Origin: Candidatus Poribacteria bacterium
Lineage (GTDB): Bacteria; Poribacteria; WGA-4E; JAJDTR01
Assembly: GCA_965222225.1 (NCBI GenBank)
Contig: CBDCTK010000002.1
Coordinates: 4,384,001-4,448,000, forward strand
DNA: 64,000 nucleotides
Direction: 5' to 3'
Part shown: positions 280 to 50,281 of the stretch, in pieces
Layout: every line of letters starts with the position of its first letter
Position numbering within the stretch: position 1 is the first letter of the stretch
Notes under the pieces: generated by a model
Databases searched by the model: none
The model's input: only the letters and a program-made list of their open reading frames with translations
What the model was told of the DNA's origin: nothing
Program-made: the position numbers and the translations under genes

Positions 280-2212
280 ACCACAAGGAGAATTTCCGAT
301 GAAAGCAACGAAGTCTCACTCTGGCTTAACGCTTATTTTTTATCTCTGTTCCGTTGCCGCGCCAACTCTGCTGGTGCTTTCCGTTGTTGCGGCGGAGCCG
401 AAACAAGTTCCCGTCCCAGAGGAGGCGCACAATCCACCGTGGCTGGAAAGCCGTAGGCAGGCGCAGTTGGAGACAGTCGATCAGTTCAAGGTTTTCTATG
501 ATTTTCAGTTTACTGACCGCGTCATGGATAGCGGAATTCAATTTGTTCACCAGATAGTGGATGATGCCGGGAAAGCCTATAAGTTGGTTCATTACGACCA
601 TGGCAATGGGGTGGTAATTGCAGACGTTGACAAGGACGAACTGTATGATATCTACTTTATCAATCAGCTGGGAAGCAACGAGTTGTGGAGGAACCTAGGG
701 GACGGCAGATTTGAAAACATTACGGAATCCGCAGGTGTGGCGGTAGCGGACCGCATCAGCGTCACCGCTTCCTTTGCCGATACTGACAACGACGGCGATC
801 CGGATCTCTTTGTCACCACGGTCGGAATGGGCAACCTCTTATTTGAAAACGACGGAACCGGCGTGTTTAAGGATGTCACAGAGACATCGGGACTAGGTTA
901 TGTCGGACATTCGTCCAGCGCCATATTCTTCGATTACAACCTTGACGGTCTGCTAGACCTCTTTTTGACCAATGTGGGCGTCTACACCATACCGCTCAAG
1001 GGGCGAGGCGGCTATTGGGTCGGGCTTAGGGATGCCTTCACCGGTCACTTAAAGCCGGATCGCACCGAAAACAGCATTCTTTACAGGAATATGGGGGACA
1101 ATCGTTTCGAGGATGTCACCGAAGAAACCGGCTTGATTGATGGAAGCTGGAGCGGCGACGCCTCGCCGATAGATGTCAACGGCGACAATTACCCGGACCT
1201 GTATGTGTTGAACATGCAGGGCCATGATGAATATTACGAGAACGTTAAGGGCGAGTCCTTTGTGAAGAAGAGCCGTGAAGTCTTCCCGAAAACCCCGTGG
1301 GGCTCAATGGGAATCAAGGTTTTTGACTATAACAATGATGGTTTGCTGGACATCATTATTTCGGACATGCACTCGGACATGTCCGAGGATATTGGTCCGG
1401 CGCGCGAGAAGTTGAAATCCCGGATGCAGTGGCCCGAGTCCTCACTACGCTCCGGGGGTAACAGTATCTTCGGCAATGCGTTCTTCAAAAACGAGGGCGG
1501 TGGCAATTATGTAGAGGTCTCGGACGAGATAGGCACCGAGAACTATTGGCCCTGGGGATTAAGTGTCGGCGACCTGAATGCGGACGGGTACGACGATGTG
1601 TTCATAACCTCGAGTATGAACTATCCGTTTCGATACGGTGTGAACTCCCTGCTGCTGAACAATCGCGGTGGAATGTTTCTTGATAGTGAATTCATCGTAG
1701 GCGTTGAACCTCGTCGAGATGGACGAACGACGAAGCCGTGGTTTGAGCTCGATTGTTCAGGCGAGGATAGGGGACACAAGGATTGCAAGGGGCAAACGGG
1801 GCGGATTACGGTGCTTGGGGCATTGGGGACGCGATCGTCCGTCATCTTCGATCTGGATGACGACGGTGACTTGGACATCGTCACGAACGAGTTCAACTCT
1901 GAGCCGTTGGTTTTAATCAACAATTTGTCCGATAAGAAAACAGTCAATTATCTTAAGGTGAAGCTGATCGGGACAGACTCAAACAGAGATGGATTGGGTG
2001 CCAAGGTTACGGTTACCGCTGGTGCGAAGTCCTACGTTAAAGTCCATGACGGACAGTCGGGCTACCTTTCACAGAGCCTATATCCTCTGTACTTCGGATT
2101 AGACGACGCAGGCCAAGTGGATCGGATTGACGTCCATTGGCCCTCGGGCAAAAGGCAGGTCGTTACGGGTCCTCTTGATGCCAGTAAATTGATTGAAATA
2201 AAGGAGGAATGA
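266..2212 (+). CDS. CRTAC1-family protein (FG-GAP/VCBS repeats plus ASPIC/UnbV C-terminal domain), probably secreted
   Basis: Repeated DxDxDGxxDL motifs, C-terminal 'SNRDGLGAKVTV...GQSGYLSQ...LYFGL...WPSG' and a hydrophobic N-terminus. True start is probably ATG 299 (AGGAG upstream). Confidence 0.9.
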   Translation: MQPNKPQGEFPMKATKSHSGLTLIFYLCSVAAPTLLVLSVVAAEPKQVPVPEEAHNPPWLESRRQAQLETVDQFKVFYDFQFTDRVMDSGIQFVHQIVDDAGKAYKLVHYDHGNGVVIADVDKDELYDIYFINQLGSNELWRNLGDGRFENITESAGVAVADRISVTASFADTDNDGDPDLFVTTVGMGNLLFENDGTGVFKDVTETSGLGYVGHSSSAIFFDYNLDGLLDLFLTNVGVYTIPLKGRGGYWVGLRDAFTGHLKPDRTENSILYRNMGDNRFEDVTEETGLIDGSWSGDASPIDVNGDNYPDLYVLNMQGHDEYYENVKGESFVKKSREVFPKTPWGSMGIKVFDYNNDGLLDIIISDMHSDMSEDIGPAREKLKSRMQWPESSLRSGGNSIFGNAFFKNEGGGNYVEVSDEIGTENYWPWGLSVGDLNADGYDDVFITSSMNYPFRYGVNSLLLNNRGGMFLDSEFIVGVEPRRDGRTTKPWFELDCSGEDRGHKDCKGQTGRITVLGALGTRSSVIFDLDDDGDLDIVTNEFNSEPLVLINNLSDKKTVNYLKVKLIGTDSNRDGLGAKVTVTAGAKSYVKVHDGQSGYLSQSLYPLYFGLDDAGQVDRIDVHWPSGKRQVVTGPLDASKLIEIKEE

Positions 2213-2318
2213 AGGGGGTTGATTTAGAGCCTGTTTGAATAATCGGTGGCAAAGCCATTTTTGGTCATTTGTAGGAAGTTTTTTCATGTTTTCATTGTTT
2301 GGCTGCTACATAACCTGT

Positions 2319-2354
2319 AGGATCTCTATCGCAGCCGCTATCCGTTCGTTTGAT
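2319..2354 (+). repeat. 36-bp dispersed hairpin unit
   Basis: AGGATCTCTATCGCAGCCGCTATCCGTTCGTTTGAT. Confidence 0.85.
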
Positions 2355-2385
2355 CCCCGCTGGGGCTTTTAGAGGCTGGTGCGCA

Positions 2386-2421
2386 GGGATCTCTATCGCA
2401 GTCATTATTCATTCCTTTGAT
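2386..2421 (+). repeat. 36-bp dispersed hairpin unit inside a GGTGCGCA..CGCACCC palindrome
   Basis: GGGATCTCTATCGCAGTCATTATTCATTCCTTTGAT. The uninterrupted host palindrome is present in the MITE copy near 37130-37150. Confidence 0.85.
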
Positions 2422-2599
2422 CGCACCCTGCAAACTGTACTTTTCAAACAGGCGCTTAATCTCAATTTTCTCGAAATTGTTTAGGTTCTGTTGACAGATC
2501 ATCGTTACCTAGATGATTGAGGGAGGCATAAATTGGTTCGCTGATATAAACAAATTGGACTATGTGACCGCGAGTTGGTGTTAAGTCAGGGTGGGAAGA

Positions 2600-2635
2600 G
2601 GAATCTCTATCGCGCTCATTGCCCACTCAATTGAT
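2600..2635 (+). repeat. 36-bp dispersed hairpin unit followed by an extra right half
   Basis: GGAATCTCTATCGCGCTCATTGCCCACTCAATTGAT then CTTCATTCAGTCACTTGAC. Confidence 0.75.
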
Positions 2636-2662
2636 CTTCATTCAGTCACTTGACACTACGGA

Positions 2663-2687
2663 GTCGCGAGTGAAACTCGCTCCTACA
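2663..2687. repeat. GTAG-type REP-like palindrome
   Basis: GTCGCGAGTGAAACTCGCTCCTACA. Related copies occur near 12427, 15271, 19023, 49233 and 53863. Confidence 0.7.
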
Positions 2688-2744
2688 GGTGTTGGGTTTC
2701 ACTGTGTTTAACCCGACCTACGGGTTAGTTGTGGGCGGGGCAAG

Positions 2745-2780
2745 GGGATCTCTATCGCACTCGCTATCCGCTCGCTCGAT
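2745..2780 (+). repeat. 36-bp dispersed hairpin unit in the loop of a GGCGGGG..CCCCGCC REP-like palindrome
   Basis: GGGATCTCTATCGCACTCGCTATCCGCTCGCTCGAT. The same host context occurs at 18875. Confidence 0.85.
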
Positions 2781-2983
2781 CCCCGCCTACGGATTCGGTG
2801 TCGCACGGCTTTCCGTTCAGTCCAGTCGTTGTATTTTTGTACAAGTCGAGCTAAGAATCTGTAACCGTGGACTATTGAGTACGTAAGTTTCATAGTCAGA
2901 TTTCGCACCCTCGTTAATGGGATTGGGGTTGTCGGATTCGAAATCGGCAACTGCAATTTTTTCTTTTCGCTGCAAAAAAACTG

Positions 2984-3012
2984 TTGACACACCACGGGAA
3001 TTTAACTATAAT
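2984..3012 (+). promoter_or_regulatory. sigma70-type promoter for the LamG array
   Basis: Perfect TTGACA-17 bp-TATAAT. Confidence 0.8.
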
Positions 3013-3211
3013 TAAGGTAATCTGGCAGTTATAAGTTGTCGGAGAAGGCAGCAATGATGTTTTTTGATGCCACAGTTGAGTGATAATCGTGTAAATTGAT
3101 AGATGGTTTTCTCCCAAAACGGTTGAAATGTCGTAGGGGGAAACTAAGAACCGGGTATATGGAACCCGGAATGATGTTTGCGGGCTAAAGCAATCCCGTA
3201 AATGTATACGG

Positions 3212-4108
3212 GTGAGATGCGCTTCGCCGCTTCCTCCCCTCAAATTAATAAACATGAAGGAGATTGACATGAATATGGGTTTTGTTAGATCAAGCCTATT
3301 ATGCCTAGGTGTGCTCTTGGCGTGCCTAGCCTTTACAAACATTAGCGACGCCGTCACAATGGACGATGTCCTTGCTGTCTGGACTTTCGACGAAAATGCT
3401 GGTGAAGAAGCCGCGGATAGCTCCGGCAACGGCAACAATGCCGAATTCAAATCAGGCGCTCCCCAATGGGTCGCCGGTAAATTCGGCAGCGCGTTGCAGT
3501 TTAACGGCGGCGACGCCGAAGACGGCGACTGGGCAGAAACGGGTGCCCCGGTCGTTGTGGATAGCGTTGACTTCACGATGGGTTGTTATGTGAATCCAGG
3601 CGACTCCCAGAAAACTTGGACGAACATTCTCTCAAGCCACGAAGAGCCGCCGCGCCGTGGTATTTCCTTTGAGATGATTGAAAACAATCTCAATTTGTTC
3701 GGTATTGCTGTTGGCGACGGTGAAAACTGGGCCGGGAATGGTACCGTTCAGCTTGACACCGGCGTGTGGAACCACATGGCTTTCGTTCGTACCGGCAATA
3801 TTGGCACATGGTATTGGAATGGCGTGCCCGAAGAATTCGAGATGCCGGGAGGCATGTTTGAATTGGCATCCGCCAATCCGGTTGTCGCCGCCACCAAACC
3901 CTTCCGCATTGGCAACTGGATACTCGGGGGCCGCGAATTCAACGGAGCCGTTGACGACGCTTTCATCTTTGGGAGACCGTTGAGCGCCGACGACATTGCC
4001 GATATCGCAGCGAACGGTATTGCTGCCGCACTTGCTGGCGGTGGAACTCTCGTTGATCCGAGGGACAAGGCATCGGTTACTTGGGGAGAGATTAAAGCCC
4101 GAAGGTAA
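3212..4108 (+). CDS. Secreted LamG (concanavalin A-like) domain protein
   Basis: Signal peptide, WTFDE..G, GKFGSALQF, WNHMAF, FNGAVDD and C-terminal VDPRDKASVTWGEIK. True start is probably ATG 3269 (AAGGAG RBS). Confidence 0.85.
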   Translation: MRCASPLPPLKLINMKEIDMNMGFVRSSLLCLGVLLACLAFTNISDAVTMDDVLAVWTFDENAGEEAADSSGNGNNAEFKSGAPQWVAGKFGSALQFNGGDAEDGDWAETGAPVVVDSVDFTMGCYVNPGDSQKTWTNILSSHEEPPRRGISFEMIENNLNLFGIAVGDGENWAGNGTVQLDTGVWNHMAFVRTGNIGTWYWNGVPEEFEMPGGMFELASANPVVAATKPFRIGNWILGGREFNGAVDDAFIFGRPLSADDIADIAANGIAAALAGGGTLVDPRDKASVTWGEIKARR

Positions 4109-37368: not shown

Positions 37369-40300
37369 ATGGACGGACCAAAAAAGGCCATTGAAAAAGC
37401 CCTGCACGAATTCGCCAGCGGTGACCTTTCCGAGAACGCCAAGAAGTTGTTCAAAGAACTCGGCTACGAGAGCGAGAGGACGATGAACCTTGACCCCAAC
37501 ACCGCAGACAGCTTCCTTTCCGCCTTCAATCTCCAAGACAATCAAGGTTTCAACCCCGAACGAGCGCTGATCGCGAAATGGGAATCAATAGATCTTCTGT
37601 TTCAGTTAACGGAGGAGGAAATCGGTAACAATCCCAATCTTGAGATCGACTTCGGAGACGGCGGCATTGACGAGGCGCGCATGGAGTCGTACCTCTTTTT
37701 CGCCATTAAGCTAAGCGGTGACCATTACACGCGGACACAACTCTCCCAAATTACGCGCGAAATCAACAAACCTTTCGACATGCCCGCCATGATTCTCTTC
37801 CAACATGGCGGGGCACTCACCTTCGCAGTGATTGACCGGCGTCTCAACAAACTCGACGAATCTAAAGATGTTCTCCTAAAGACAACCCTCATCAAAGACA
37901 TCAACTTCGCCAATCCCCACCGCGCGCACATTGACATTTTGTCTGACCTCTCAATTGACGAACTATATGCGAAGCACGAGTTCAAAAATTTCCCGGAACT
38001 TCATGAAGCGTGGAGAGGGACACTAGATACCGAGGAACTCAATCGACAGTTTTACCAGAAATTGTTTAAATGGTTTGAGTGGGCAGTATGTGAGGCAAGA
38101 TTCCCGGAGAGTGAGAAACGCACTTTGAAACCGGAGGAACACGTTATTCGGTTAATCACGCGCTTGCTTTTCGTCTGGTTCATCAAGGAGAAAGGACTGG
38201 TTGCGGATGAGTTGTTCAACGACACGCAAGTCGCACGTTTGATGAAAGACTATGACCGTGACAGTGGGGATTCTTACTACCGTGCGGTGCTGCAGAACCT
38301 GTTCTTTGCCACGTTGAACACCGAGATTGAGGAGCGTCGGTTTAGCAGAATGACAAGGGACGACCATCGCAATTTCACACTGTATCGCTACAAAGATCAG
38401 ATAAGCAACCCTGATGCTTTACTGACACTCTTCTCCCAAACGCCATTCATCAACGGCGGGTTGTTCGATTGTCTTGATGACTACAAAGCAATACTAGCGG
38501 GCGGTTCCCGCATTGACTGTTTTTCGGATGAGCATTACTGGAAGTTAAGTGTTCCTAACAGTCTGTTCTTTAACGAGACTCGTGGTCTGTTCCCCCTTCT
38601 GACCCACTACAAGTTCACTGTAGAAGAAAACACGCCGATAGAGGAGGAGGTCGCGTTGGATCCTGAATTGCTCGGAAAGGTGTTTGAGAATCTGCTGGCG
38701 GCATATAATCCGCAAACCGGCACAACCGCGCGCAAACAGACTGGCTCCTACTACACGCCGCGCGTTATCGTGGACTACATGGTGGAGGAAGCGCTGGTAG
38801 CGGCGCTTGCAGAACGGGTGAAACCGACAGATGGAGATGCGGAGTTCTGGAGTGAGCGGTTGCATTATTTGCTGGACTACGCAATGGCATTCGATGATGC
38901 GAGCGAATGGTTCGATGACCGGGAATTAAACGACATTGTCCGGAAAATCTCAGATTTGAAGATTTTGGACCCGGCGGTGGGGTCCGGTGCCTTCCCGATG
39001 GGGATGCTGCACAAACTGACACTTGCACTACGCCGGCTCGACCCGGACAATATCCGGTGGGAGAAATTGCAGAAGGAACGCGCGGGGCAACGAGCGACGG
39101 CGGCTTTCGATACCTCAGACCAACAGGAACGGGATGCGGAATTGACAGAGATCAGCGACACTTTCGAGCGATACCGCGATTCGGATTTTGGTCGGAAGTT
39201 GTACCTGATTCAGAACAGCATCTTCGGTGTGGATATTCAATCCATCGCCTGCCAAATTTCCAAACTGCGTTTCTTTATCTCGCTTACAATTGAGCAGGAA
39301 CCGAATGATTTAGTGGACAACTTTGGTATCAAGCCCTTGCCAAATTTGGAGACGCGCTTTATTGCTGCGAACACGTTAATCGGCCTAAAAACAGAAATCC
39401 AGTTATTTCTGGAAAATGACACCGTTCAAAAAAAGCAATCCGAAATTCAGTTAATACGCGAAAAGTATTTCTTGGCAAGCACTCGAAAGGAAAAGCTCGG
39501 ACAAATTGACAAGGAAGATGAGTGTCGCAGAGAATTAGAACAGGCATTGAATAAACAGCAAGTTGCATGGGTCATGCAGCAGAAAAGACAGATAGAGCAC
39601 AAGGTTGCTCAGCTTCCAACTGAAGAACTTCGGAAGGCACTACGGGAAAAACTAGGACACGAATACAAGCGACTTGAGCGAGAACTGAACATTCGCTTTG
39701 AGGAGGCCCGCAAAATCGCCGGATGGGTGCCCTACGACCAGAATTCCTCTGCCGAGTTCTTTGATGCGGAAGGAATGTTTGGTGTTAAAGACGGTTTTGA
39801 TGTGGTGCTAGGGAATCCACCGTATATTCAGTTGCAGAAGGATGGTGGAAAATTAGGGCGTTTGTATGAACCATGCAAATTTGATAGTTTCACAAAAACA
39901 GGGGATATCTACTGTCTGTTCTATGAGAAAGCAATTCAATTGTCAAATGACGGTGGGCATGTCTTCTTTATTACTTCCAACAAATGGATGCGTGCAGGGT
40001 ACGGCAAAAAGCTACGAGATTATCTCATTAAACACACCCAACCGATTCAGCTGTTGGATATGGGCCGGATGTATTTGACGCCACAGTAGATGCCAATATC
40101 CTGCTTTTGCGAAATTCCGCACTTGATTTGCGCACGGCATTCAGAGCTTGTACCATGAAATCTGATTTCGACAAACAAGTAGGGAACATAGCCCGATACC
40201 TGAAGAACAATGGCGTGACCATGGAACTACCGCCCAACGGCGAACCGTGGACGATACTTTCACCGGCAAAACTTGCCCTGAAACGCAAAATAGAGGGTGT

Positions 40301-41099
40301 TGGAAAAGCACTCAAAGACTGGGATATAAACATCCATTATGGGATAAAAACAGGTTGCAATGAAGCATTCATCATAAATGAAGCAAAGCGTGAAGAACTG
40401 ATTGCACAGGACCCAAGGTCAGTCGAAATCATCAAGCCATTTCTGCGCGGCCGAGACATCAAACGCTATCATGTTCAATGGGCAGGCTTGTACATGTTGG
40501 CAACCCAATACAATCTGGATATTCCAAAAAAGTATCCCGCTATCTACAATCACCTCAAAACCGTAGGAGAACAGATAGAATCTGGAAGAATAAAGGCAAA
40601 AGGTAAAGGGTTATTCAATAGGGACGACCAAGGCGAGAACTGGTGGAATCTCAGAGCTTGTGCTTACTACGCCGAATTTGAAGAAGAGAAGGTTGTTTAT
40701 CCCGAAACAACTCTCGCTGCTAACTTTTTCTACGATGAAGAGCGACATTTCATAGAGAAAACCTGTTTTATGATAACTGGTAGCGATTTAAAAATCTTAG
40801 TGGGATTGTTGAGTTCCACGCTATTGACATTTGTATACAGACAATACTACGGTGGTACTGTGCTCGGCAATAAGGGATATCAATACAACAAACATGCCCT
40901 AGAAGAGCTCCCGGTTATTGAGATTTCTGCTACAGAACAGCGTTCTTTTATCTCTTTAGTCGATCAGATTCTCGACGCCAAACGTGCCGATTCGGACGCC
41001 GATGTATCCGAACTTGAAAGTGACATTGACCAGGTGGTATACTCGTTGTACAATCTGACTGCTGAAGAAATTGCTATTGTGGAGGAAAACACGGTCTGA
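37369..41099 (+). pseudogene. Type IIG (Eco57I-like) restriction-modification enzyme / N6-adenine MTase, split by a 1-bp frameshift near 40066 (ORFs 37369-40089 and 40107-41099)
   Basis: FINGGLF, LLGKVFENLL, TGSYYTP, ILDPAVGSGAF, GNPPY. Restoring one base in ATGGGCCGGATG gives MGPDVFDATVDANILLL running into the TaqI-like target-recognition ORF. Confidence 0.85.
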
Positions 41100-41251: not shown

Positions 41252-43369
41252 ATGAACAAACCTCTAAAAGGTTTCATCACCTATTCGCATAAAGACGAAC
41301 AGAAAAGGAAAAAATTGCGGACGTGTCTTGCTGTAATGGAGCGGGCAGGCGAGGTGACAATTCGCGACGATAGTGACATCAACCCGGGCGGCAAAGCGCG
41401 TCAGGAAGACATTCTTAAAGAAGTTGCTGATTCGGATATTCTGCTTTATCTCGTTTCTACTGATAGCCTTGCATCTGGAAACTGTAACAGAGAGTTGACC
41501 GAGGCAGTGAGAGCCAACAGACGTGTTATCCCCATCATCCTTGAGAGTTGTGATTGGCTGAATGACCGACTCCACGGCTTCGGAGCTCTTCCGGACAAAG
41601 GCAAAGCCATAAACAAATGGAAACCTCAGAGTGATGGATGGCAGAATGTAGTGGATGGTATTCGAGAAGTTATTGAAGAAATGCAAGCTCAAGCGGATAC
41701 ATCATCCGGGACATCTGAAGAAGAACTACAGGCTAAATTGGCACTCAGATACGGTAACGACTTAATGATGATTGGACAAACCGACAGAGCAATAGAAAGC
41801 TATTCGCACGCAATTGAAATTGACCGAAATTATGCCGAGGCTTATAACAATCGCGGGGTTGCATACCAGAAAAAGGGCGACTTTAACCGCGCCATTACAG
41901 ATTTTACCAAAGTGATAGAGCTTAAACCCAATGATGCCGTAGCCTATACCAATCGCGGGGGCATTTATGGGGACACAGGTGATTATGACCGTGCCATCGC
42001 AGATGTTAATACCGCAATAAAACTCAAACCCAATTATGCCGGAGCGTATAATAATCGCGGGTTAGTTTATAATAATAAAGGAGATTTTAACCGTGCCATT
42101 GAGGATTATACGACGGCGATACAACTCGACCCGCATCATGCAATAGCCTATTGTAATCGTGGCATAGCTTACAACAGCAAAAATGAGTATGACCACGCCA
42201 TCAAAGACTTTAACGTGGCCATAGAACTCAAGCCAAACCTTGCCAACGCCTATTGCAATCGTGGCGGTGCTCACATTCATAAGGGGGATTATAACCGCGC
42301 CGTCGGCGACTTGGACACAGCAATAGACCTGAACCCCAATCTTGCAGAAGCCTATGCGGATCGTGGCGGTGCATACATTCATAAAGGGGATTATGACCGC
42401 GCCATCGCTGACCTGAACACGGCGATAGACTTGAAACCCGATAACACCGAAGCCTTTACCAATCGAGGCCTAGCCTTAATTCATGCAGGGGATTATGACT
42501 GTGCCATCGGCGACTTGAACACGGCAATAGGCTTGAAACCAGATCATGCCAGTGCTTATAACAATCGTGGACTAGCTTACGTTCATAAAGGCAATTTGAA
42601 CCGCGCCATCGTGGATTTTAACGTGGCGATAGACCTGAAATCTGATTTTGGCGAAGCCTATAACAATCGTGGAAGTGCTTACATTCATGAAGGGGATTAT
42701 GACCGCGCCGTCGACGACTTCAATGCGGCGATAGACCTGAAATCTAATGATGCCGGAGCCTATACTAATCGTGGTATTGCACAGGCCAAAAAAGGGAATC
42801 TTAATCTAGCCATTGGAGATTTTAATACAGCGATACAACTCAATCCCAATGATGCCATGGCCTATTCTAATCGCGGACAGACCTACAGTGATATAGGTGA
42901 TTATGATCGTGCTATCATAGACTTTGGCGCAGCGATACAATTGGACCCCCACAATGCCATCACCTACTACAATTGTGGTATCGCTTATAACAACAACGGA
43001 GAATACGAACACGCCATCGCAAACTTTGACATGGCCGTAAAGCGGAATCCCAATTTTGCAAACGCCTATCATCTTCGGGGTATTGCCTACAGAAACCAAA
43101 GGAAATTTAGCCCTGCCATAGCAGACTTCAGCAATGCGATTCAACTCAATCCGAATTTGCCGGGAGCCTATTGTAATCGCGGCGAGGCGCGGTTGCACCT
43201 ACGTGAATGGGAGAAAGCGAAATCAGACTTAATGGTTGCAAAGGATAAAGGCGTAGATATCATTGCTCCCTTTCGTATTTGCTACAAAGGCGTTGAGGAT
43301 TTTGAGCAGAAGAATAACGTGAAATTACCGGAAGACATTGTTGCGATGCTTACGCCACCGGCAGGTTGA
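41252..43369 (+). CDS. TIR domain plus TPR repeat protein
   Basis: N-terminal FITYSHKD...LYLVSTDSLASGNCNREL...VIPIIL (TIR_2) followed by about 15 regular AYNNRG TPR units. Confidence 0.9.
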   Translation: MNKPLKGFITYSHKDEQKRKKLRTCLAVMERAGEVTIRDDSDINPGGKARQEDILKEVADSDILLYLVSTDSLASGNCNRELTEAVRANRRVIPIILESCDWLNDRLHGFGALPDKGKAINKWKPQSDGWQNVVDGIREVIEEMQAQADTSSGTSEEELQAKLALRYGNDLMMIGQTDRAIESYSHAIEIDRNYAEAYNNRGVAYQKKGDFNRAITDFTKVIELKPNDAVAYTNRGGIYGDTGDYDRAIADVNTAIKLKPNYAGAYNNRGLVYNNKGDFNRAIEDYTTAIQLDPHHAIAYCNRGIAYNSKNEYDHAIKDFNVAIELKPNLANAYCNRGGAHIHKGDYNRAVGDLDTAIDLNPNLAEAYADRGGAYIHKGDYDRAIADLNTAIDLKPDNTEAFTNRGLALIHAGDYDCAIGDLNTAIGLKPDHASAYNNRGLAYVHKGNLNRAIVDFNVAIDLKSDFGEAYNNRGSAYIHEGDYDRAVDDFNAAIDLKSNDAGAYTNRGIAQAKKGNLNLAIGDFNTAIQLNPNDAMAYSNRGQTYSDIGDYDRAIIDFGAAIQLDPHNAITYYNCGIAYNNNGEYEHAIANFDMAVKRNPNFANAYHLRGIAYRNQRKFSPAIADFSNAIQLNPNLPGAYCNRGEARLHLREWEKAKSDLMVAKDKGVDIIAPFRICYKGVEDFEQKNNVKLPEDIVAMLTPPAG

Positions 43370-43473
43370 GATTTGACAGACCGTTGCGCCTCCGAGGTAA
43401 TTGTGGAGGAAGGGATGGAAAACTGTCCGAATCACGGATTAAACAGAATACGCAGATTAGTGAATTTTTATCG

Positions 43474-43576
43474 ATCAACTGGGCGGATAGATCGAACGAG
43501 CGATTAGCGAGTGATCAACTGAGCGATTAATGAAGGCGATAGAGATCCCATAGAGATCTTAAGGCGATAATTCCCC
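43474..43576 (-). repeat. Three-level nested 36-bp units (reverse)
   Basis: Minus strand: GGGAATTATCGCCTT[AAGATCTCTAT[GGGATCTCTATCGCCTTCATTAATCGCTCAGTTGAT]CACTCGCTAATCGCTCGTTCGAT]CTATCCGCCCAGTTGAT. Confidence 0.8.
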
Positions 43577-44248
43577 CATAGCGCCTTCCGTTCGACAGTG
43601 TTTATCCCGCGCCCTTCCAAATCTGATTGTTGACAAAAAGGCATTATTTCGTCAAATTTCGTCAAGTTGTGTCGTGTTTTGTCACGTAACCTTCGTTAGA
43701 AGCATTCACTTGAATCCGAGTTTCTACTTCAAAACCCGCGATCTTTATCGCAAAATCTTTTCGAGTGCACACCGCCGCCAAGCGGCAGAATAAATCCACG
43801 GAGCGAATAGATTAGCCACTTGACCTATTCAATCGTTCGATCGGTCATTTTCCATACATACCGAGTCGTCTCGACATGTATCGCGGCGAAAACTCTCGGA
43901 ATGGAGATGGGTTCAATTTGGCAAATGTCAACACGCTCTAGTACCCTTGAACCGGCTAGGGGATCGATCCGGTTTCAGAGTGTTGTTCCGAGGTCCATGC
44001 ACTGCATACCGCCGAGAAACTAGTCCTGGAACGGGTTCTCCCTGTTTCCTGTGACGCTTCGTTTCTCGCGTCTACTCTGAAAACTCTGAAAATCACATGA
44101 CCGCAGCCGCGTTAGATGAAGTGTCAGATTGAGTAAACCGCGGACGAGCCCTCACATCAGGCACACTTGCAGTAGGGTGGGCACTGCCCACCATCAGCAA
44201 ACGCCCAATGGCTGCTCAAATTAACGACATCCCATAAAGGAAAAAAAC

Positions 44249-47200
44249 ATGACAGAAAACCCCTCACTATTCCCGTCCGGCATCCGGGACAACCGCGAGC
44301 GGGGGACGGTCGGCAAGTTCCTTGAATCGCAGATTGAGAACGGGTCGTCGCTTTCGGTTGTCTCGGCGTACTTTACAATCTACGCTTTCGAGGCGTTGAA
44401 ATCGTCCTTACTTGGAATCAGTGACCTTCGCTTTCTGTTCGGCGAACCCCGATTCATCAAAAAGCTTGACCCCGACAAAACGGAAAAGAAATCCTTCGTC
44501 ATAGATAGCGACGGTTTGCAGTTGGAGAACCAGCTCCAACTCAAGCGTGTGGCACGGGAATGCGCCGAGTGGATTCAGGAGAAGGTGGAGATTCGGTCAA
44601 TCCGTGAATCAAATATGCTGCACGGGAAGATGTACCATATCGCCAAGAACGGCGTGGAAAACGCCATCCTCGGCAGCTCGAATTTTACCGTTCGCGGCTT
44701 GGGATTGAGTGAGTCAGGCAGCAATATTGAACTGAATCTGAAGGTGGCGGACGACCGCGACCGGAGCGATCTGAAGTTGTGGTTTGATGAACTGTGGAAT
44801 GATAAGAAACGGGTCGAGGATGTTAAGGAGGAGGTGTTGTCCTACCTTAACCAACTCTATGAGAATTACGCGCCGGAGTTTGTCTACTACAAGACGCTCT
44901 TTCATATTTTTGAGCGATTCTTGAGCGATCAGGAGGGACGGGGATTGCTGGACGAACCGGCGCAACTGGTCGATACGCAGATTTGGAAAGCGCTCTATGA
45001 ATTTCAGAAGGATGGCGTGAAGGGGGCAATCAACAAAATCTTGACGCATAACGGGTGTATCATCGCGGACAGTGTGGGCTTGGGCAAAACGTACGAGGCA
45101 TTGGCGGTGATAAAATACTTTGAACTGCGTAACGACAACGTGCTGGTGCTGTGTCCGAAGAAGCTGCGTGAGAATTGGACGCTCTACCAAGCATACACGG
45201 GAAACAAACTCAATCCGTTCCCCAATGACCGATTCGGTTACACCGTGCTGTCGCATACCGACCTGAGCCGGGAGGGAGGCAAGTCGGGGGATATCGACCT
45301 TTCGTCGTTCAACTGGGCCAACTACGGTCTGGTGGTTATAGATGAGTCGCACAATTTCCGAAACAACACGCCTGGAAAAAAAGATCGGGACGGCAACCTG
45401 ATACGCTTGAGCCGCTACAAGCGGCTGATGGAGGACATTGTCAAGAGCGGGGTAAAGACCAAGATGCTGTTGCTGTCGGCGACGCCGGTGAACAACGACC
45501 TACGAGATTTGCGGAACCAACTCTATTTTCTTACAGAGGAACGCGACGACGCTTTCAAGGACTCACTCGGTGTCGCCAACCTGAGAGAGACTATCACAGC
45601 CGCCCAAACGGCGTTCAACAAGTGGGCGAAAGAGGACGGTGCGCGTAACAGTCAGAAGTTGCTGGAGGAACTGAGTACTGCCTTCTTCAAGTTGCTTGAC
45701 GGGTTGACGATTGCCCGTTCGCGGAAGCAGATTCAGAAGTATTATCCCAAGTCGCTGAGAGAACTTGGCGGCTTCCCGGAACGCAGTAAGCCAGTTTCGC
45801 TTTCTCCGCCTATTGATACACTCGGGGAGTTCATGTCTTACGACAAACTTAACGAGGAGATTTCCGAGTATCAACTCTCCTTGTACAATCCTACCAAATA
45901 TCTCCGACCCGAATACCAGTGCGAATATGACCTAGAGCCCGTCAGAAACTTTACGCAGAGCGACCGCGAGCACTTTCTAATCGGCATGATGAGGGTAAAC
46001 TTCCTCAAACGCTTGGAAAGCTCCGTTCGCTCCTTTAGGATTACGTTGAAGCGTACGCTTGATAAGATTGAGGAGTTGGAGGCGCGTATCCGACGGTTTC
46101 AGGAGTATCGCGCCGGAAATCCCGACCTGGATCCGGCGGAGATGGAGATTGACGCCGATGATGACGAAGAACTACAGGCGGCGTTCGAGGTGGGCAAGAG
46201 CCTAGTGTTCAAGATGGCGCACCTTGATGTTGAGCGGTGGTTAGAGGATTTGAAACAGGACAGGGAGCAACTTGAGGGGCCGTACCGCTCGGCAGAGAAA
46301 GTCAGCCCTGTCCGCGATGCCAAACTGGCGAAACTCAAGGAACTAATTGAGGCTAAGGTTAAGCACCCGACAATCACCAAGAATGGGAATCCCAATCGGA
46401 AGGTACTGGTGTTCACGGCTTTTGCGGATACCGCCGACTACCTCTACGGGGAGTTACATGAATGGGCACAGGCAGAATTGGGCATCCGCACCGGGATGGT
46501 GACGGGGGGCGCCATGCCCAACAGAACCACGCTTGGCAAGACCAACTTCATCGACATTCTCACCAATTTCTCGCCCATTGCAAAGAACCGCGCGCACGAC
46601 GATTCCATGCCCCAAGAAGCCGAGATTGACCTGCTCATCGGCACGGATTGTATCTCGGAAGGACAGAACCTGCAAGACTGCGATTACCTGATTAACTACG
46701 ACATTCATTGGAATCCGGTACGCATCATCCAGCGGTTCGGGCGGATTGACCGTATCGGGAGCGTCAATAAGAGCGTACACTTGGTAAACTTCTGGCCCAC
46801 TCCCGACTTAAACCGTTACATCAACCTGAAAAATCGGGTTGAAGCGCGGATGGCGTTGGTGGATGTCACGGCTACGCAGGGAGACAACTTGCTCGATCCG
46901 GACGCACTTCCCGACGTGATTGCGGGTGACCTCAAGTACCGCGACCAGCAACTCCTAAAACTTCAGGAGGAAATCCTTGACCTTGAAGAGTTTAACGAAA
47001 GCGTTGCCCTCAACGAGTTCACGCTGGACGATTTCCGCATGGAACTAATCAAGTATATTGAAAGTAACAGGAAGAAACTTGAAGAGGCACCCTTCGGACT
47101 TTACGCGGTTGTGCCGCCGCTTGCGGGAGATCCAATAATTCAACCCGGCGTCATCTTCTGCCTGCGACAGAAAACGGAATCGGAGGAGAACGAAAAGTTG

Positions 47201-47653
47201 AATCCTACCCAACCCTATTTCCTCGTCTATGTTCGGGAGGATGGCGTCGTGCGGTTTACCTTTGCGCAGCCGAAGCAGATTCTTGAGATGTACCGGCAAC
47301 TGTGTGCGACGAAAACTAGCCCGTATGACGAGTTGTGTGCGTTGTTCGACGAGCATACGGAGGACGGCGGCGACATGTCGCAATACGACAAACTACTCCG
47401 GGAAGCCGTGAGGTCCATTTCTTATACGTACGAGAAACGCGCCTTCAGCAGTCTGCGATCCGGTCGCGGTGGGGTTTTGCCACTCGAGTCAGAGCAGGTT
47501 GGCGACACGACGGACTTTGAGTTGGTGACGTGGTTGGTGATTAAGGACGGATCGTCTCCCACAAAGCTGAATGAGCTTCTGGATCAAGTGACAGAATACA
47601 AGATTCATGGTGAAGTAGACACCGGATCTCCGGTGGGGCGTGAAGAATGGTAA
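44249..47653 (+). CDS. PLD-nuclease plus SNF2-type helicase (R-M-associated) with a MazE-like C-terminal tail
   Basis: LHGKMY...GSSNFT (PLD), IADSVGLGKT, DESH, LLSATP, SEGQNLQ, QRFGRIDRIG; tail LNELLDQVTEYKIHGEVDTGSPVGREEW. Confidence 0.9.
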   Translation: MTENPSLFPSGIRDNRERGTVGKFLESQIENGSSLSVVSAYFTIYAFEALKSSLLGISDLRFLFGEPRFIKKLDPDKTEKKSFVIDSDGLQLENQLQLKRVARECAEWIQEKVEIRSIRESNMLHGKMYHIAKNGVENAILGSSNFTVRGLGLSESGSNIELNLKVADDRDRSDLKLWFDELWNDKKRVEDVKEEVLSYLNQLYENYAPEFVYYKTLFHIFERFLSDQEGRGLLDEPAQLVDTQIWKALYEFQKDGVKGAINKILTHNGCIIADSVGLGKTYEALAVIKYFELRNDNVLVLCPKKLRENWTLYQAYTGNKLNPFPNDRFGYTVLSHTDLSREGGKSGDIDLSSFNWANYGLVVIDESHNFRNNTPGKKDRDGNLIRLSRYKRLMEDIVKSGVKTKMLLLSATPVNNDLRDLRNQLYFLTEERDDAFKDSLGVANLRETITAAQTAFNKWAKEDGARNSQKLLEELSTAFFKLLDGLTIARSRKQIQKYYPKSLRELGGFPERSKPVSLSPPIDTLGEFMSYDKLNEEISEYQLSLYNPTKYLRPEYQCEYDLEPVRNFTQSDREHFLIGMMRVNFLKRLESSVRSFRITLKRTLDKIEELEARIRRFQEYRAGNPDLDPAEMEIDADDDEELQAAFEVGKSLVFKMAHLDVERWLEDLKQDREQLEGPYRSAEKVSPVRDAKLAKLKELIEAKVKHPTITKNGNPNRKVLVFTAFADTADYLYGELHEWAQAELGIRTGMVTGGAMPNRTTLGKTNFIDILTNFSPIAKNRAHDDSMPQEAEIDLLIGTDCISEGQNLQDCDYLINYDIHWNPVRIIQRFGRIDRIGSVNKSVHLVNFWPTPDLNRYINLKNRVEARMALVDVTATQGDNLLDPDALPDVIAGDLKYRDQQLLKLQEEILDLEEFNESVALNEFTLDDFRMELIKYIESNRKKLEEAPFGLYAVVPPLAGDPIIQPGVIFCLRQKTESEENEKLNPTQPYFLVYVREDGVVRFTFAQPKQILEMYRQLCATKTSPYDELCALFDEHTEDGGDMSQYDKLLREAVRSISYTYEKRAFSSLRSGRGGVLPLESEQVGDTTDFELVTWLVIKDGSSPTKLNELLDQVTEYKIHGEVDTGSPVGREEW

Positions 47654-48006
47654 GACTGACCAACTACGTTCCACGACGCGGTGATGCGGTGTGGGTTGAC
47701 TTTAATCCTCAAGCTGGGCATGAGCAAGCGGGTCGTCGTCCTGCCGTAGTTCTTTCACCAGAGTCTTATAACGGAACTGTAGGTTTAGCAATTTTGTGCC
47801 CAATTACCAACAAAGTGAAGGGGTATCCCTTTGAGGTGGCTATCCCTCCCGGACTGGAGGTAACAGGCGTAATTCTTGCGGATCAACTCAAGAGCGCAGA
47901 TTGGCAAGTAAGAAATTCCGAGTTGATTTGTTCCTTGCCCATGAACACAGTGGACACGGTTTTGCAGAAAGTCCAAACGCTCTTGGGAAAAGATGATAAA
48001 CCATGA
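47647..48006 (+). CDS. mazF: MazF/PemK endoribonuclease toxin
   Basis: YVPRRGDAVWVDFNPQAGHEQAGRRPAVVLSP..YN...CPIT..KGYPFEV..GVILADQLKS.DW. Confidence 0.95.
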   Translation: MVRLTNYVPRRGDAVWVDFNPQAGHEQAGRRPAVVLSPESYNGTVGLAILCPITNKVKGYPFEVAIPPGLEVTGVILADQLKSADWQVRNSELICSLPMNTVDTVLQKVQTLLGKDDKP

Positions 48007-48177
48007 TTGAATCCAAGTGGAACACTTGTCAATTCACGATGGTTTTTTGTCCTTTAAAACCAAACAAATCAGCAACTCAACATATCTTGGACAGATTGCA
48101 TGGGTGGTGATTAACCAGCGGTGCAGTGAGCGAAAGGGTGTACTGAACTTGGTGCTTTTTGATGGAGAGAATCTCGT

Positions 48178-49188
48178 ATGGCTCTTAAACGAAATGACAG
48201 ACTGAAATGGAATAGCCGATCGATATTGGAAGGTAACGGGCAGATAGGCGATCTTAGGCAGGAGATACCTCAATTTGCGGAAGCTCCGTTCAGCGTAGAA
48301 GACAGAGGGGAGAATAAATATCTAAGACTCATAGTAAGGGAACCTCTCAAGGAAGGTCAAGGATTCCTTTTCCCAAGCAACAACCAAGAGGAGTTGCAGA
48401 TTCCCGTTGCCACCGTCTCAAAACGGTACAAGCTAGTTCAACATCGTCATATAGTAATGTCATTAGAAATGGCGCTGAAAAGAGTTGGTCTGAACCCAGA
48501 ACGTCTTGAAGTCGGATTAACCCTGACAGAGTATGGCGAATGCATGCAGATTAGCTTCTTTATGCCCAACGATTCTCCGTACGCCTTTAATCTCGGCAAT
48601 GAAGACCATGTTTTACAAGTGAATGCATTGAATTCTGTGGATAAAACGACGAAACTGGAGATTAACCTAAGGTGGTATAGTCTTAATTCCCAAACCGGAA
48701 TGTTGGCGCGTCGGGATGCGAGATTGAAAAAAATTCACCTGAAATCGTCGAAATCACTTGAATCTGTCATTAAAGGATTCTTAGAAGAGCAACTTGCTCA
48801 AGCATCAGAGGACATACAACGATTCAGAGAGTGGTATCAAATCAAGGTTTCTTTCGAGCAGTTATCCCATGCGAAGCCTAGTCCAAGCCAAATTGAACAT
48901 TGGATAAAGCGATTCGTCGCTAGGAGATGGGGAGAACATTCAGCCAAAAGAGTGTACCGCATTGCAAGAGAAGGGATGGACCTCCCCAGTCCTCATGAAT
49001 CCCAATACACCAATCCAGTTCTTAGCTCTTTCGCTCCCGTGCGCAATGCCTACGATATCAGTCAAGTGTTAAGTTGGATTGCCAGCCAAGAAGGAACAAT
49101 ACAGAATCAACATGCCCGACGGATGGATATACCAGATTTGATGGAGGCCCTCATTAAAACACAAAAGCCGCTAACGCTGAGCGTGTAA
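48178..49188 (+). CDS. DUF932/DUF945-like protein (mobile-element associated)
   Basis: VATVSKRYKLVQH, TEYGECM, LNSVD motifs. Confidence 0.6.
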   Translation: MALKRNDRLKWNSRSILEGNGQIGDLRQEIPQFAEAPFSVEDRGENKYLRLIVREPLKEGQGFLFPSNNQEELQIPVATVSKRYKLVQHRHIVMSLEMALKRVGLNPERLEVGLTLTEYGECMQISFFMPNDSPYAFNLGNEDHVLQVNALNSVDKTTKLEINLRWYSLNSQTGMLARRDARLKKIHLKSSKSLESVIKGFLEEQLAQASEDIQRFREWYQIKVSFEQLSHAKPSPSQIEHWIKRFVARRWGEHSAKRVYRIAREGMDLPSPHESQYTNPVLSSFAPVRNAYDISQVLSWIASQEGTIQNQHARRMDIPDLMEALIKTQKPLTLSV

Positions 49189-49291: not shown

Positions 49292-50281
49292 TCAAAACTC
49301 CATTAGCGTTGCGTCGTTGTTGAGGTAGGCTTGGATCCATGGGCGTACTCGCTCGCGCATGCTACCGGCGTCATGTAGATGCAACCAAAGCGTCATGCCG
49401 CGGAGGAAGGCAAGTTTGAGATGAGCGGTCAGTGAATTTCGCTCGGATTTCGTGAGGGGACAGACCGCTTCGTAGGCATCAAGAAAAACGGATTTCTGGT
49501 GGGGCGCTAGGGGCGTGTTTTGGTAGACGGCGGGGAAAAAGACCAGGGCATACGCGAGATCGAAGGTGCGATTGGCGGGTCGTGCGGTGTCGAGATCCAA
49601 GATAGCTTTCACCTTTCCTTCGGCATGAAATTTCAGGTTCTGTGCGCGGTAATCGCCGTGGATAATCCAATCTCCCTCGTCCGGCACGGGAAGTTCCGCA
49701 GCTAATCTCTCCACTTCGGTCTTCCACTCAGCAATCTGACTCTCCGATACCGGATAGCCTGCGGTTTGCGAGGCAGCGGTTCGTATTCGCTCAAGCCGTA
49801 GGCGCAACAGGTTGATGACTTCGTCGTGCATTGGCACCCACTTGAAGTCAACTGAGGGCAGAAAGCCGCGCAATTCATCGTGAATTCGGCACAAGATGTC
49901 GCCCGCAGATTGCAGCGCTCCCGTAGGTTTCGCAGTGTCGTAATTGTACCCATCCACAAATTCGGAAATCGCGTAGATTTCACTTCCTTCATTCGTTAGT
50001 GTGTCGCTGTCACGGTTTCGGAGGAGGCGAGGGATGGGGAAACCCCGATCCCAAAGATAATCCTGTGCCGCATGGGTGAAGGCGATGCGAGGGCGGTGCG
50101 TAGATGGGTTGAGGTTAAGGTCAGACGCAGGCTTATAGCGTTTTAGAAACAATTTACCCCGATCCGTATTGAGTGCCATGGTGGAACTCATGGCGCCTGT
50201 GCCTACCGGGATAGCCGTGGCAACTTTCAGTCGGTAGTTCTGGTGGATACTTGCCTCTTCGTGAGGCAAAAGGGGTTCCAT
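49292..50281 (-). CDS. Phosphotransferase (APH / type II homoserine kinase-like)
   Basis: FLKRY, IIHGDYRAQNL, ILDLD. Confidence 0.85.
   Translation of the reverse strand: MEPLLPHEEASIHQNYRLKVATAIPVGTGAMSSTMALNTDRGKLFLKRYKPASDLNLNPSTHRPRIAFTHAAQDYLWDRGFPIPRLLRNRDSDTLTNEGSEIYAISEFVDGYNYDTAKPTGALQSAGDILCRIHDELRGFLPSVDFKWVPMHDEVINLLRLRLERIRTAASQTAGYPVSESQIAEWKTEVERLAAELPVPDEGDWIIHGDYRAQNLKFHAEGKVKAILDLDTARPANRTFDLAYALVFFPAVYQNTPLAPHQKSVFLDAYEAVCPLTKSERNSLTAHLKLAFLRGMTLWLHLHDAGSMRERVRPWIQAYLNNDATLMEF

Follow-up and report, generated by a model that had tools for sequence, protein, structure and literature searches.

The C-terminus of a PLD+SNF2 helicase encoded in a 64,000-nucleotide stretch of a Candidatus Poribacteria genome (the window) reads as the toxin-binding module of a MazE-type antitoxin, and its last codons overlap the start of a mazF toxin gene for which no mazE of its own is found. 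The explanation that we favor, with a probability of about 70%, is that a deletion fused the helicase gene to the distal part of an adjacent mazE and that the helicase acts as the antitoxin of MazF. This reading, put forward in a preliminary description of the locus, is the best supported because the tail resembles MazE, the helicase family normally ends before it, no separate mazE is found, the fusion is real, mazF looks active and a model of the complex predicts binding.

A helicase with a MazE-type C-terminus

Table 1 Features of the window and the evidence used to assign them.
Feature	Position	Strand	Size or evidence
Eco57I-family (type IIG-like) N6-adenine methyltransferase with TaqI_C target-recognition part	37369..41099	+	Pfam, PADLOC
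TIR-TPR protein, between methyltransferase and helicase	41252..43369	+	Pfam TIR_2 and many TPR families
PLD (HKD) + SNF2 helicase ORF, tail included	44249..47653	+	1134 aa
Helicase core, residues 1-1099, ending ...DFELVTWLVIK	44249..47545	+	Pfam, PADLOC, orthologue ends
MazE-derived C-terminal tail, residues 1100-1134, 35 codons	47546..47650	+	Homology to MazE C-termini
Segment predicted to touch both MazF subunits, helicase residues 1105-1134	47561..47650	+	Complex model
GAATGGTAA junction, helicase ...E-W-stop over mazF ATG (47647-47649)	47645..47653	+	ORF reading
mazF, endoribonuclease toxin, 119 aa	47647..48006	+	PF02452, NF007386, solved-structure match

The helicase contains the Pfam domains PLDc_2, SNF2-rel_dom, and Helicase_C. 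The PADLOC profile C3a139 (‘HKD+Snf2’) matches it at 8.2e-126, with profile positions 94-946 of 948 falling on residues 106-1097; the protein thus has the full-length profile, the PLD domain and both SNF2 lobes (N and C) expected of a C3a139 member. It is not the DISARM protein DrmD, as its scores against NF038317 (151.3 bits, cut-off 610) and NF038318 (95.3 bits, cut-off 950) are far too low. We consider the helicase a candidate anti-phage defense enzyme on the basis of its context, that is, a methyltransferase partner. The methyltransferase (Pfam Eco57I, 1.3e-34, and TaqI_C, 5.3e-14; PADLOC REase_MTase_IIG) is read in two frames, 37369..40089 and 40107..41099. It lies about 4 kb upstream of the helicase and shares 53-65% identity with a gene that, in three loci of other genera (L019-L021), overlaps the stop codon of the helicase gene; it is likely the modification partner of the helicase. 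The term R-M island used in the preliminary description is therefore fair. The TIR-TPR protein encoded between the two genes matches the PADLOC ThsB-like TIR profile at 9.5e-23.

Helicase orthologues stop 0-12 residues past the motif WLVI[KQLE] in 14 of 20 loci, whereas the protein encoded in the window runs 35 codons beyond this normal end. After DFELVTWLVIK the frame continues with DGSSPTKLNELLDQVTEYKIHGEVDTGSPVGREEW, which begins with a five-residue linker (DGSSP) followed by the toxin-binding segment and ends with a Trp codon (47648-47650) and a TAA stop (47651-47653). In phmmer searches of solved structures the last 28-29 residues aligned end-to-end with three MazE/PemI C-termini: 7d2n_E residues 53-80 (E 0.015), 1mvf_D residues 54-82, and 1ub4_C residues 57-85. 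A profile HMM based on 19 free MazE-type tails, and on none from the helicases, was used with every filter off to search the complete set of 137,900 six-frame ORFs (at least 25 aa) of the genome. The sole match was the helicase C-terminus (E 5.1e-9, 36.7 bits; next E 6.8), with profile positions 17-46 lying on its last 30 residues. The tail also retains all six invariant columns (L18, L21, E33, G41, E43, and W45) of a 22-row tail alignment (A2). By these comparisons the similarity to MazE is above chance.

In contrast to the free-tail profile, the Pfam and NCBIfam family models gave no MazE family, either with the tail alone or with the last 67 residues of the helicase, where the sole match was DUF5921 (E 0.16). 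Thus, the tail proposed in the preliminary description is recognized by a profile of MazE tails and not by the family models. Such a result is expected, because PF04014 (AbrB/MazE/SpoVT) models only the N-terminal AbrB domain. The helicase has no PF04014 match, so it is not a MazE-family protein and bears only the C-terminal module. The sequence comparisons therefore support assignment of the tail as a MazE C-terminal module that lacks the AbrB domain, as had been claimed. Antitoxins are modular proteins in which a disordered toxin-binding tail accompanies a DNA-binding domain. For E. coli MazE, PMC4333400 reports that residues 1-50 alone bind DNA and that the disordered C-terminus neutralizes MazF. 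An AlphaFold2 model of the C-terminal 258 residues of the helicase (19-row alignment) had a mean pLDDT of 42.5 and a pTM of 0.35, values too poor to judge exposure of the tail.

MazF, its missing antitoxin and the predicted complex

The toxin gene is well assigned. MazF matches PF02452 (1.4e-25, 90.0 bits, cut-off 23.1) and the curated family NF007386 ‘endoribonuclease MazF’ (125.4 bits, cut-off 120), and aligns with the solved MazF structure 7d28_A at 1e-36. Residues R31 and T54 align without gaps with R29 and T52 of E. coli MazF (5ck9_A), which we take to be the catalytic Arg and Thr. An alignment of 22 MazF sequences (A1) shows T54 without exception and R31 with a conservation of at least 90%. 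The preliminary description had allowed for an inactive toxin, but with these residues kept, both curated cut-offs passed and the coding sequence constrained (see below), the mazF gene looks active.

The reported overlap of the last tail codons with the mazF ATG is seen and amounts to 7 nt. An identical −7 overlap joins the free 80-aa mazE to mazF in sister-genus gene pairs (L024-L027) and is also present in L022 and L023. The helicase tail follows the sister-genus mazE in codon register without gaps, and a T-x-L-V-I motif is common to helicase and free mazE at the joint. No other ORF that could be mazE is present in the helicase-mazF interval. Genome-wide, PF04014 gave no matches (the positive control was matched in 10 of 14 known genomes) and a sister-genus MazE query found only the tail (E 3.8e-4). 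The claim that a separate mazE is absent therefore holds both locally and across the genome, which is 94.9% complete, and mazF has no other visible antitoxin, although these searches reveal the MazE type only and would miss an antitoxin of another class. A sigma-70 and terminator scan of positions 43300-48300 gave three promoter-like sites (4.2 expected from shuffled sequences), each of them on the minus strand, and neither favors nor disfavors a separate mazF promoter.

The complex of tail and MazF was modeled, as the preliminary description had suggested, with two copies of MazF. All three runs gave an ipSAE of 0.80, against 0.00 for the best of three controls; the runs shared at least 90% of contacts and partner pLDDT was at least 72. 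In calibration 58 of 80 solved complexes attained this mark, as did 2 of 110 mismatched pairs, although the present model differs from the calibration set in using its own alignments and two MazF copies. The modeled interface comprises residues 16-19, 21-22, 24-25, 28-38, and 40-45 of the 45-aa helicase segment and on the MazF side includes residues 31, 52, and 54. Note that passing the mark may reflect memory of solved MazEF complexes. With this reservation, the model supports binding of the tail to MazF.

These data suggest how the gene may have arisen. An in-frame deletion would have joined the last strand of the AbrB domain of an adjacent mazE (..T-N/K-L-V-I..) to the look-alike end of the helicase (..T-W-L-V-I-K). 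MazE would have lost its DNA-binding half, and the disordered MazF-binding tail would have been retained together with the native mazE-mazF translational overlap. The 1134-aa helicase would now serve as antitoxin, with one tail wrapped around one MazF dimer, masking the catalytic Arg and Thr and docking the RNase on the helicase. MazF would be translated, in a coupled manner, from the helicase transcript, and MazE-type autoregulation would be missing. The consequence would be addiction: MazF would be freed if synthesis of full-length, in-frame helicase halted or if the tail were clipped. Counting against a helicase antitoxin is that the avidity and autoregulation of canonical MazE are gone without the AbrB dimer.

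Distribution, age and selection

The tail is present in seven of ten same-genus genomes. Three of these seven also carry mazF, and from the other four it has been removed by a clean deletion that begins directly past the stop codon (in these four species there is no mazF match at E ≤ 1e-10); the remaining three genomes have neither. One of the latter, G003, is nested among the tail-bearers. The fusion is restricted to this one genus among 61 genomes searched, and the orthologues outside it all lack the tail. Between the six tail-bearing genomes with whole loci, helicase-body dS is 0.31-0.86, and the 13 clusters (90% identity) of the same helicase all end GREEW. Mis-assembly at about position 47545, a concern raised at the outset, is rejected and any assembly or annotation artifact there has a negligible probability, as the same junction recurs in the seven separately assembled species genomes and in the 13 protein clusters, and contigs from two other studies (X3 record 16, with 0 differences, and X8 record 21) span positions 47545 and 47647 with no joints and no indels. 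The fusion is real and old. Contigs from RNA libraries also span the tail/mazF junction (X15 record 6 and X16 record 11); such contigs are no proof of transcription.

The proposed search for further helicase-tail loci recovered the same orthologue and, among the matches listed, no unrelated large carrier. In a word search of proteins of 623-1985 aa, which requires shared five-residue words and could miss distant fusions, all 13 matches (20 candidates) were the same orthologue. An exhaustive search with the tail profile gave 2604 proteins at E ≤ 0.001, the best 150 of which are all 37-304 aa long; longer carriers could rank below these 150, and the helicase's own representative is absent from them. 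No enzyme domain was found in the 10 proteins scanned from the best 150. The carriers that lack an AbrB domain (same bacterial order and metagenomes) have hydrophobic or repeat-bearing N-termini, are an 8xMP membrane protein or consist of a near-bare tail of 37-66 aa. Like the helicase they have the tail at the extreme C-terminus and mazF directly downstream, but they differ from it in size and, in the 10 scanned, in the lack of an enzyme domain.

Tail and mazF are under purifying selection in the mazF-bearing genomes. Tail pN/pS in the mazF-bearing pairs is 0.05, 0.23, and 0.09, values that rest on tiny counts (1-3.5 non-synonymous and 4.5-8.5 synonymous substitutions per pair), and mazF omega is 0.08-0.11 relative to G006. 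The helicase body has an omega of about 0.08-0.12. Note that the mazF-bearing genomes G000 and G005 differ by a dS of only 0.037 in mazF versus 0.53 in the helicase, so that their mazF genes and distal tails cannot be treated as independent observations; the mazF segment recombines within the genus. Tail pN/pS is also low in the mazF-less genomes (0.08-0.21), so the signal on the tail is not specific to the presence of mazF. An in-frame, constrained tail in four mazF-less species could mean that the tail has a role in the helicase unrelated to MazF, or that MazF is neutralized otherwise, by an antitoxin of another class or by very low expression. We consider this most improbable, as the invariant terminal Trp codon is altered only in mazF-less genomes, where two independent mutations (TGG>TTG and TGG>TAG) have removed it, every orthologue outside the genus lacks the tail, and no conserved gene follows mazF across the three mazF-bearing loci.

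A more serious rival accepts the fusion and denies it any value in defense. A chance deletion-fusion may persist because cells that lose the tail are killed by MazF, with the module being slowly lost as a selfish or neutral relic. The three-state polymorphism within a single genus, the clean deletion of mazF followed by decay of the Trp codon, the restriction to one genus, and the movement of the mazF segment by recombination all agree with such a history, whereas the strong purifying selection on mazF speaks against it, as does survival of the fusion over a dS of 0.5-0.8. However, a selfish toxin-antitoxin module would also outlast such divergence, so this explanation and the opposing reading differ only in host benefit. 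We hold the relic explanation to be quite possible, if short of probable. Because mazF is absent from four of the seven tail-bearers and G003 lacks both elements, the helicase-mazF pairing is dispensable and the natural history leans toward a deletion-fusion kept by the need to neutralize MazF, or toward a selfish addiction module. That mazF has been lost repeatedly points to a module that cells can do without and that may be selfish.

Possible guarding of a defense enzyme and comparison with known systems

The preferred reading, the helicase as antitoxin, can be extended to a back-up in abortive infection, which is built on it rather than exclusive of it. In this view the helicase-nuclease would form the first line against phage DNA. 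Should a phage inhibit, deplete, or cleave it, or should it shut off host expression and with it replenishment of the product of the 3.4-kb antitoxin ORF, MazF would be released and the cell would be killed or arrested, much as in the PrrC/EcoprrI system. MazF is tied to a defense enzyme within an R-M-like island, the fusion has been retained in three species that are 0.5-0.8 dS apart, and there are precedents in PrrC-EcoprrI, type II Gabija, and the BREX-related back-up RNases. In contrast, the dispensability of mazF described above weighs against guarding and, as no other large carrier was found by the word search or among the best 150 of the 2604 profile matches, there is no sign of convergent recruitment. 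We therefore offer the guard as a tentative proposal that is rather unlikely to be correct. Equally speculative is its fullest form, a two-tier device in which MazF, parked on the helicase via a captured antitoxin peptide, would become an abortive-infection RNase when a phage neutralizes, consumes, or stops synthesis of the helicase, a PrrC-EcoprrI-like guard built in covalently by domain capture. Frame-breaking mutations in the 3.4-kb gene would then be lethal and lock in a costly defense gene.

Whatever its use, a MazE tail has moved onto a large defense enzyme and been long retained, and a suicide toxin appears to be wired to that enzyme in an unusual manner. If the helicase is the antitoxin, this would be a natural case of a toxin-antitoxin pair wired into another immune system and a simple physical route for guarding a restriction enzyme, and the module would protect an entire long ORF against loss of function by mutation. 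The genus supplies natural controls in its alleles with tail plus mazF, tail only, and neither. A description of a helicase-MazE-tail/mazF locus was not found in the article texts searched; further architectures may appear in the supplements of PMC13069673 and PMC12839542.

The locus shares with canonical type II MazE-MazF (E. coli 1UB4; Deinococcus-type 7D2N) the Trp-terminal tail motif L..LL....(H/E)xE.D.G...G.E.W, a MazF toxin, an antitoxin stop codon over the toxin ATG, and a tail that, in the model, spans both MazF subunits. It differs in that a 1099-aa PLD+SNF2 helicase takes the place of the AbrB/SpoVT DNA-binding and dimerization domain, and hence operator binding, a MazE dimer, and a small labile antitoxin are lacking. 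In EzeT (PMC4826407) and fused HicAB (PMC10865869), as those articles present them, an antitoxin module is likewise carried covalently on a larger polypeptide, but there it is joined to its own toxin, whereas here it is joined to an unrelated defense enzyme and the toxin is separate.

Helicases are combined with a MazF-fold or other toxin-antitoxin toxin in one defense operon in type II Gabija (GajB plus GajC), DarHTG, and ietHAS (PMC13069673). According to that article, type II Gabija pairs the GajB helicase with a MazF-like effector in abortive infection, and the ietH helicase lends antitoxin-like control in ietHAS. However, the accounts given there are of separate UvrD- or DEAH-type helicases and include no MazE-derived tail, and GajC has a split MazF-like fold and is not a bona fide MazF. 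BREX-related core ATPases are described as carrying fused back-up RNases (PMC12839542).

PrrC with the type Ic enzyme EcoprrI offers an analogy in logic. In both cases an RNase toxin lies beside a DNA-restriction enzyme; PrrC is physically associated with EcoprrI, which keeps it latent until a T4 inhibitor of EcoprrI activates it (PMC1484252), and latency by association is what we propose for MazF. The toxin of the present locus is not PrrC, as it is a MazF by PF02452 and NF007386, and PrrC is an ABC-ATPase-type tRNase that is masked without a captured antitoxin peptide. For PrrC, a phage anti-restriction peptide has been shown to trigger activation, and the likeness of the helicase-MazF pair to it would be one of logic only.

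The helicase-mazF junction

The helicase had been described as reading on in frame past DFELVTWLVIK, and it does so for 35 codons before its stop; the ORF overlaps the start of mazF by 7 nt. A Pfam scan assigned PLDc_2, SNF2-rel_dom and Helicase_C domains to the helicase, and the PADLOC profile C3a139 (HKD+Snf2) matched it at 8.2e-126, covering residues 106-1097. By sequence, the following gene is a clear MazF. Its product scored 90 bits with PF02452, the MazF family, and 125.4 bits with the NCBIfam model for endoribonuclease MazF (cut-off 120), and was matched by the solved MazF 7d28_A at 1e-36. MazF R31 and T54 align with E. coli MazF R29 and T52, which we take to be catalytic.

Features of the helicase-mazF locus and contigs (runs X3 and X8) bridging its junctions
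Feature	Position	Strand	Description
Eco57I-family methyltransferase	37369..40089		upstream of helicase; 906 aa, Eco57I/N6_Mtase
TaqI_C part of methyltransferase	40107..41099		upstream of helicase, other frame; 330 aa
TIR-TPR protein	41252-43369		between methyltransferase and helicase; 705 aa, ThsB-like TIR, long TPR repeats
Helicase ORF	44249..47653	+	1134 aa; PLD (HKD) nuclease-type domain and SNF2 helicase lobes
K1099, end of ...DFELVTWLVIK	47543-47545	+	last residue before tail
Tail, 35 codons	after 47545	+	DGSSPTKLNELLDQVTEYKIHGEVDTGSPVGREEW; in frame with helicase
Helicase stop TAA	47651-47653	+	
mazF	ATG 47647-47649, end 48006	+	7-nt overlap with helicase ORF
ORF directly after mazF	48178-49188		336 aa; no Pfam or PADLOC family
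X3 record 16	47504-47905		0 differences; bridges both junctions
X8 record 21	47398-48200		bridges both junctions

Mis-assembly at about 47545, raised in the preliminary description as a possible objection, is excluded. Seven species genomes, each assembled separately, share the same core/tail junction, as do 13 protein clusters, 13/13 of which end in GREEW, and contigs from two other studies span the core/tail and tail/mazF junctions without indels or joints. In comparisons among the six tail-bearing genomes that have whole loci, helicase-body dS was 0.31-0.86 and omega about 0.1. The fusion is not an artefact, and it is old.

The type IIG-like methyltransferase (37369-41099) is either a true two-subunit enzyme or a gene broken by a frameshift; its two ORFs cover the front and the back, respectively, of single PADLOC REase_MTase_IIG profiles. 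In three genomes from other genera the helicase stop is overlapped by a gene 53-65% identical to this methyltransferase, and helicase and methyltransferase are therefore a linked R-M-like pair, rearranged here. The ORF directly after mazF is absent at the corresponding place in the related genomes G005 and G006, and the X3 and X8 contigs continue into it.

The tail compared with MazE antitoxins

When the last 45 aa of the helicase were compared with all solved chains by phmmer, three of the six matches were MazE/PemI chains (7d2n_E, E 0.015; 1mvf_D; 1ub4_C), each aligned from about residue 53-57 through its final residue. Antitoxins ending in the same motif precede mazF homologues in relatives' genomes, and the helicase tail kept 6/6 invariant columns in an alignment of 22 antitoxin tails. 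To avoid circularity an HMM was built from 19 non-helicase tails and run, with all filters off, against every six-frame genome ORF of at least 25 aa. Its sole match was the helicase C-terminus (E 5.1e-9; next, E 6.8), and no second MazE-type tail was found among these 137,900 ORFs of an assembly that is 94.9% complete. PF04014, the AbrB/MazE domain, gave zero matches genome-wide in a search that was positive in 10/14 control genomes, and the sister-genus MazE (80 aa), used as query, matched only the helicase tail. The MazE-like character of the tail and the lack of a separate mazE and AbrB domain, both claimed earlier, are borne out, and within the reach of these searches mazF has no other antitoxin.

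A complex of two MazF copies with the 45-aa C-terminal helicase segment was modelled with a set-up differing from that of the calibration, in which 58/80 solved complexes and 2/110 mismatched pairs reached the mark. All three runs gave ipSAE 0.80 (the best of three controls reached 0.00) and shared at least 90% of contacts, with partner pLDDT of at least 72. Residues 1-15 of the segment, which are native to the helicase, fall outside the predicted interface, whereas residues 16-45 are predicted to touch both MazF subunits, including MazF residues 31, 52 and 54. Because MazE-MazF complexes are already solved, the modelling suggested earlier shows likeness to those complexes, not binding by this copy. 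The predicted fold of the C-terminal 258 aa of the helicase was too poor for use.

Tail sd/nd in pairs of mazF-bearing genomes was 6/1, 4.5/3.5 and 8.5/2.5 (pN/pS 0.05, 0.23 and 0.09), all small counts; the predicted contact segment differed at one position (N/K) among the three such genomes, and mazF omega was 0.08-0.11 versus G006. Tail pN/pS is likewise low in mazF-less genomes (0.08-0.21, small counts), which weighs against reading the tail as an antitoxin.

The tail also occurs on hydrophobic or repeat N-termini, on an 8xMP membrane protein and on near tail-only ORFs, but none of the best 150 tail-profile matches exceeded 304 aa, and an enzyme domain was present in 0/10 carriers scanned from these.

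A further genus of the same order has, ahead of mazF, proteins of 120-280 aa that lack a Pfam domain and are not AbrB-type MazE (loci L029-L033, L035, L037-L039 and L048; proteins P0014, P0025, P0043 and P0071). Some of these proteins begin with a hydrophobic stretch, seen in several, and in all of them the MazE tail motif occurs twice in tandem, with Trp ending only the last copy. In the 304-aa metagenome protein P0055, another non-standard carrier, the MazE tail and a weak AbrB match are joined to an octameric membrane-protein domain of the 8xMP type (PF24838, 6.2e-37).

Origin and allelic states of the fusion

Within a set of 20 orthologous helicase loci (66-100% identity), 14 end 0-12 residues past TWLVI[KQLE], the usual end that the preliminary description had wished to see located. 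The tail is present in 6/20 and in a seventh genome, G004 (partial contig), and all seven tail-bearing genomes belong to the genus of the window; among the matches listed, none from 51 genomes of other genera reaches past query residue 1117. In the sister genus a 70%-identical mazF follows a standard 80-aa mazE that encodes both the AbrB domain and the tail, and there too the two genes overlap by 7 nt. The native helicase end resembles the last strand of that AbrB domain, given a gapless codon match of helicase T-W-L-V-I-K-D-G-S-S-P-T-K-L with MazE T-N/K-L-V-I-V-P-V-S/R-P-A-S-L-A-L. The simplest origin would be an in-frame deletion at short homology. A tail-less allele in metagenome contigs leaves the window sequence exactly after 47544, reading ...WLVIKAAGE-stop in the contigs' loose-end letters, and this pins the fusion breakpoint.

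Several allelic states coexist within the single metagenome runs X8 and X15 (window 47544/47545 and 47652): tail plus mazF; tail-less, departing after 47544; and tail-only, departing at the stop codon. At L028 of genome G041 (1274-3319), a mazE frame lacks any ATG/GTG/TTG start ahead of a 35-aa ORF, its usual N-terminal AbrB strand is not recognisable, and a 70%-identical mazF is next. A paralogous gene for a PLD-type helicase lies about 1 kb further downstream, which makes this a second mazEF beside such a helicase.

Ten genomes of the genus show three states: tail plus mazF (the window's own G000, G005 and G006), tail only (G009, G001, G002 and G004) and neither (G003, G007 and G008). In tail-only genomes divergence begins a few bases past the stop codon, which indicates a clean mazF deletion; the W/ATG codon is changed from TGG to TTG in G009, G001 and G004 and to TAG in G002. 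Tail-less G003 is sister to G006 on the helicase tree (support 1.0), so exchange or loss of the states has happened on more than one occasion. G000 and G005 are near-identical over mazF and the last ~14 tail codons (window 47607-48006; L003/L022 in G005), with dS 0.037 for mazF versus 0.53 for the adjoining helicase, which points to a tract of recent recombination or transfer with its upstream edge inside the tail. The tail-less loci L008 and L009 (G003 and G007) share a ~200-aa gene downstream of the helicase stop, followed by the same APH-type kinase gene as window 49292-50281.

Proposed mechanism and known systems

We propose that the helicase itself would be the MazF antitoxin. The tail would be the last part translated, mazF would be translated by coupling, and one tail would hold one MazF dimer onto the helicase. 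In E. coli MazE, residues 1-50 bind DNA and the disordered tail neutralises MazF (PMC4333400). As the AbrB domain is absent here, MazE-type autoregulation would be impossible. Loss of full-length in-frame helicase production, or clipping of the tail, would free MazF, the minimum outcome being addiction to an intact helicase ORF.

Full-text searches of main articles gave no case of a MazE tail on a PLD+SNF2 defence helicase acting as the only antitoxin to a separate MazF; the component parts are already known and their combination appears undescribed. The helicase-MazF pair may also serve as an abortive-infection back-up. That mazF has been lost repeatedly argues, however, for a pairing that cells can do without. 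Precedents for such a back-up are PrrC masked by EcoprrI (PMC1484252), type II Gabija with its GajB helicase and MazF-like effector (PMC13069673) and BREX-related ATPases with fused back-up RNases (PMC12839542).
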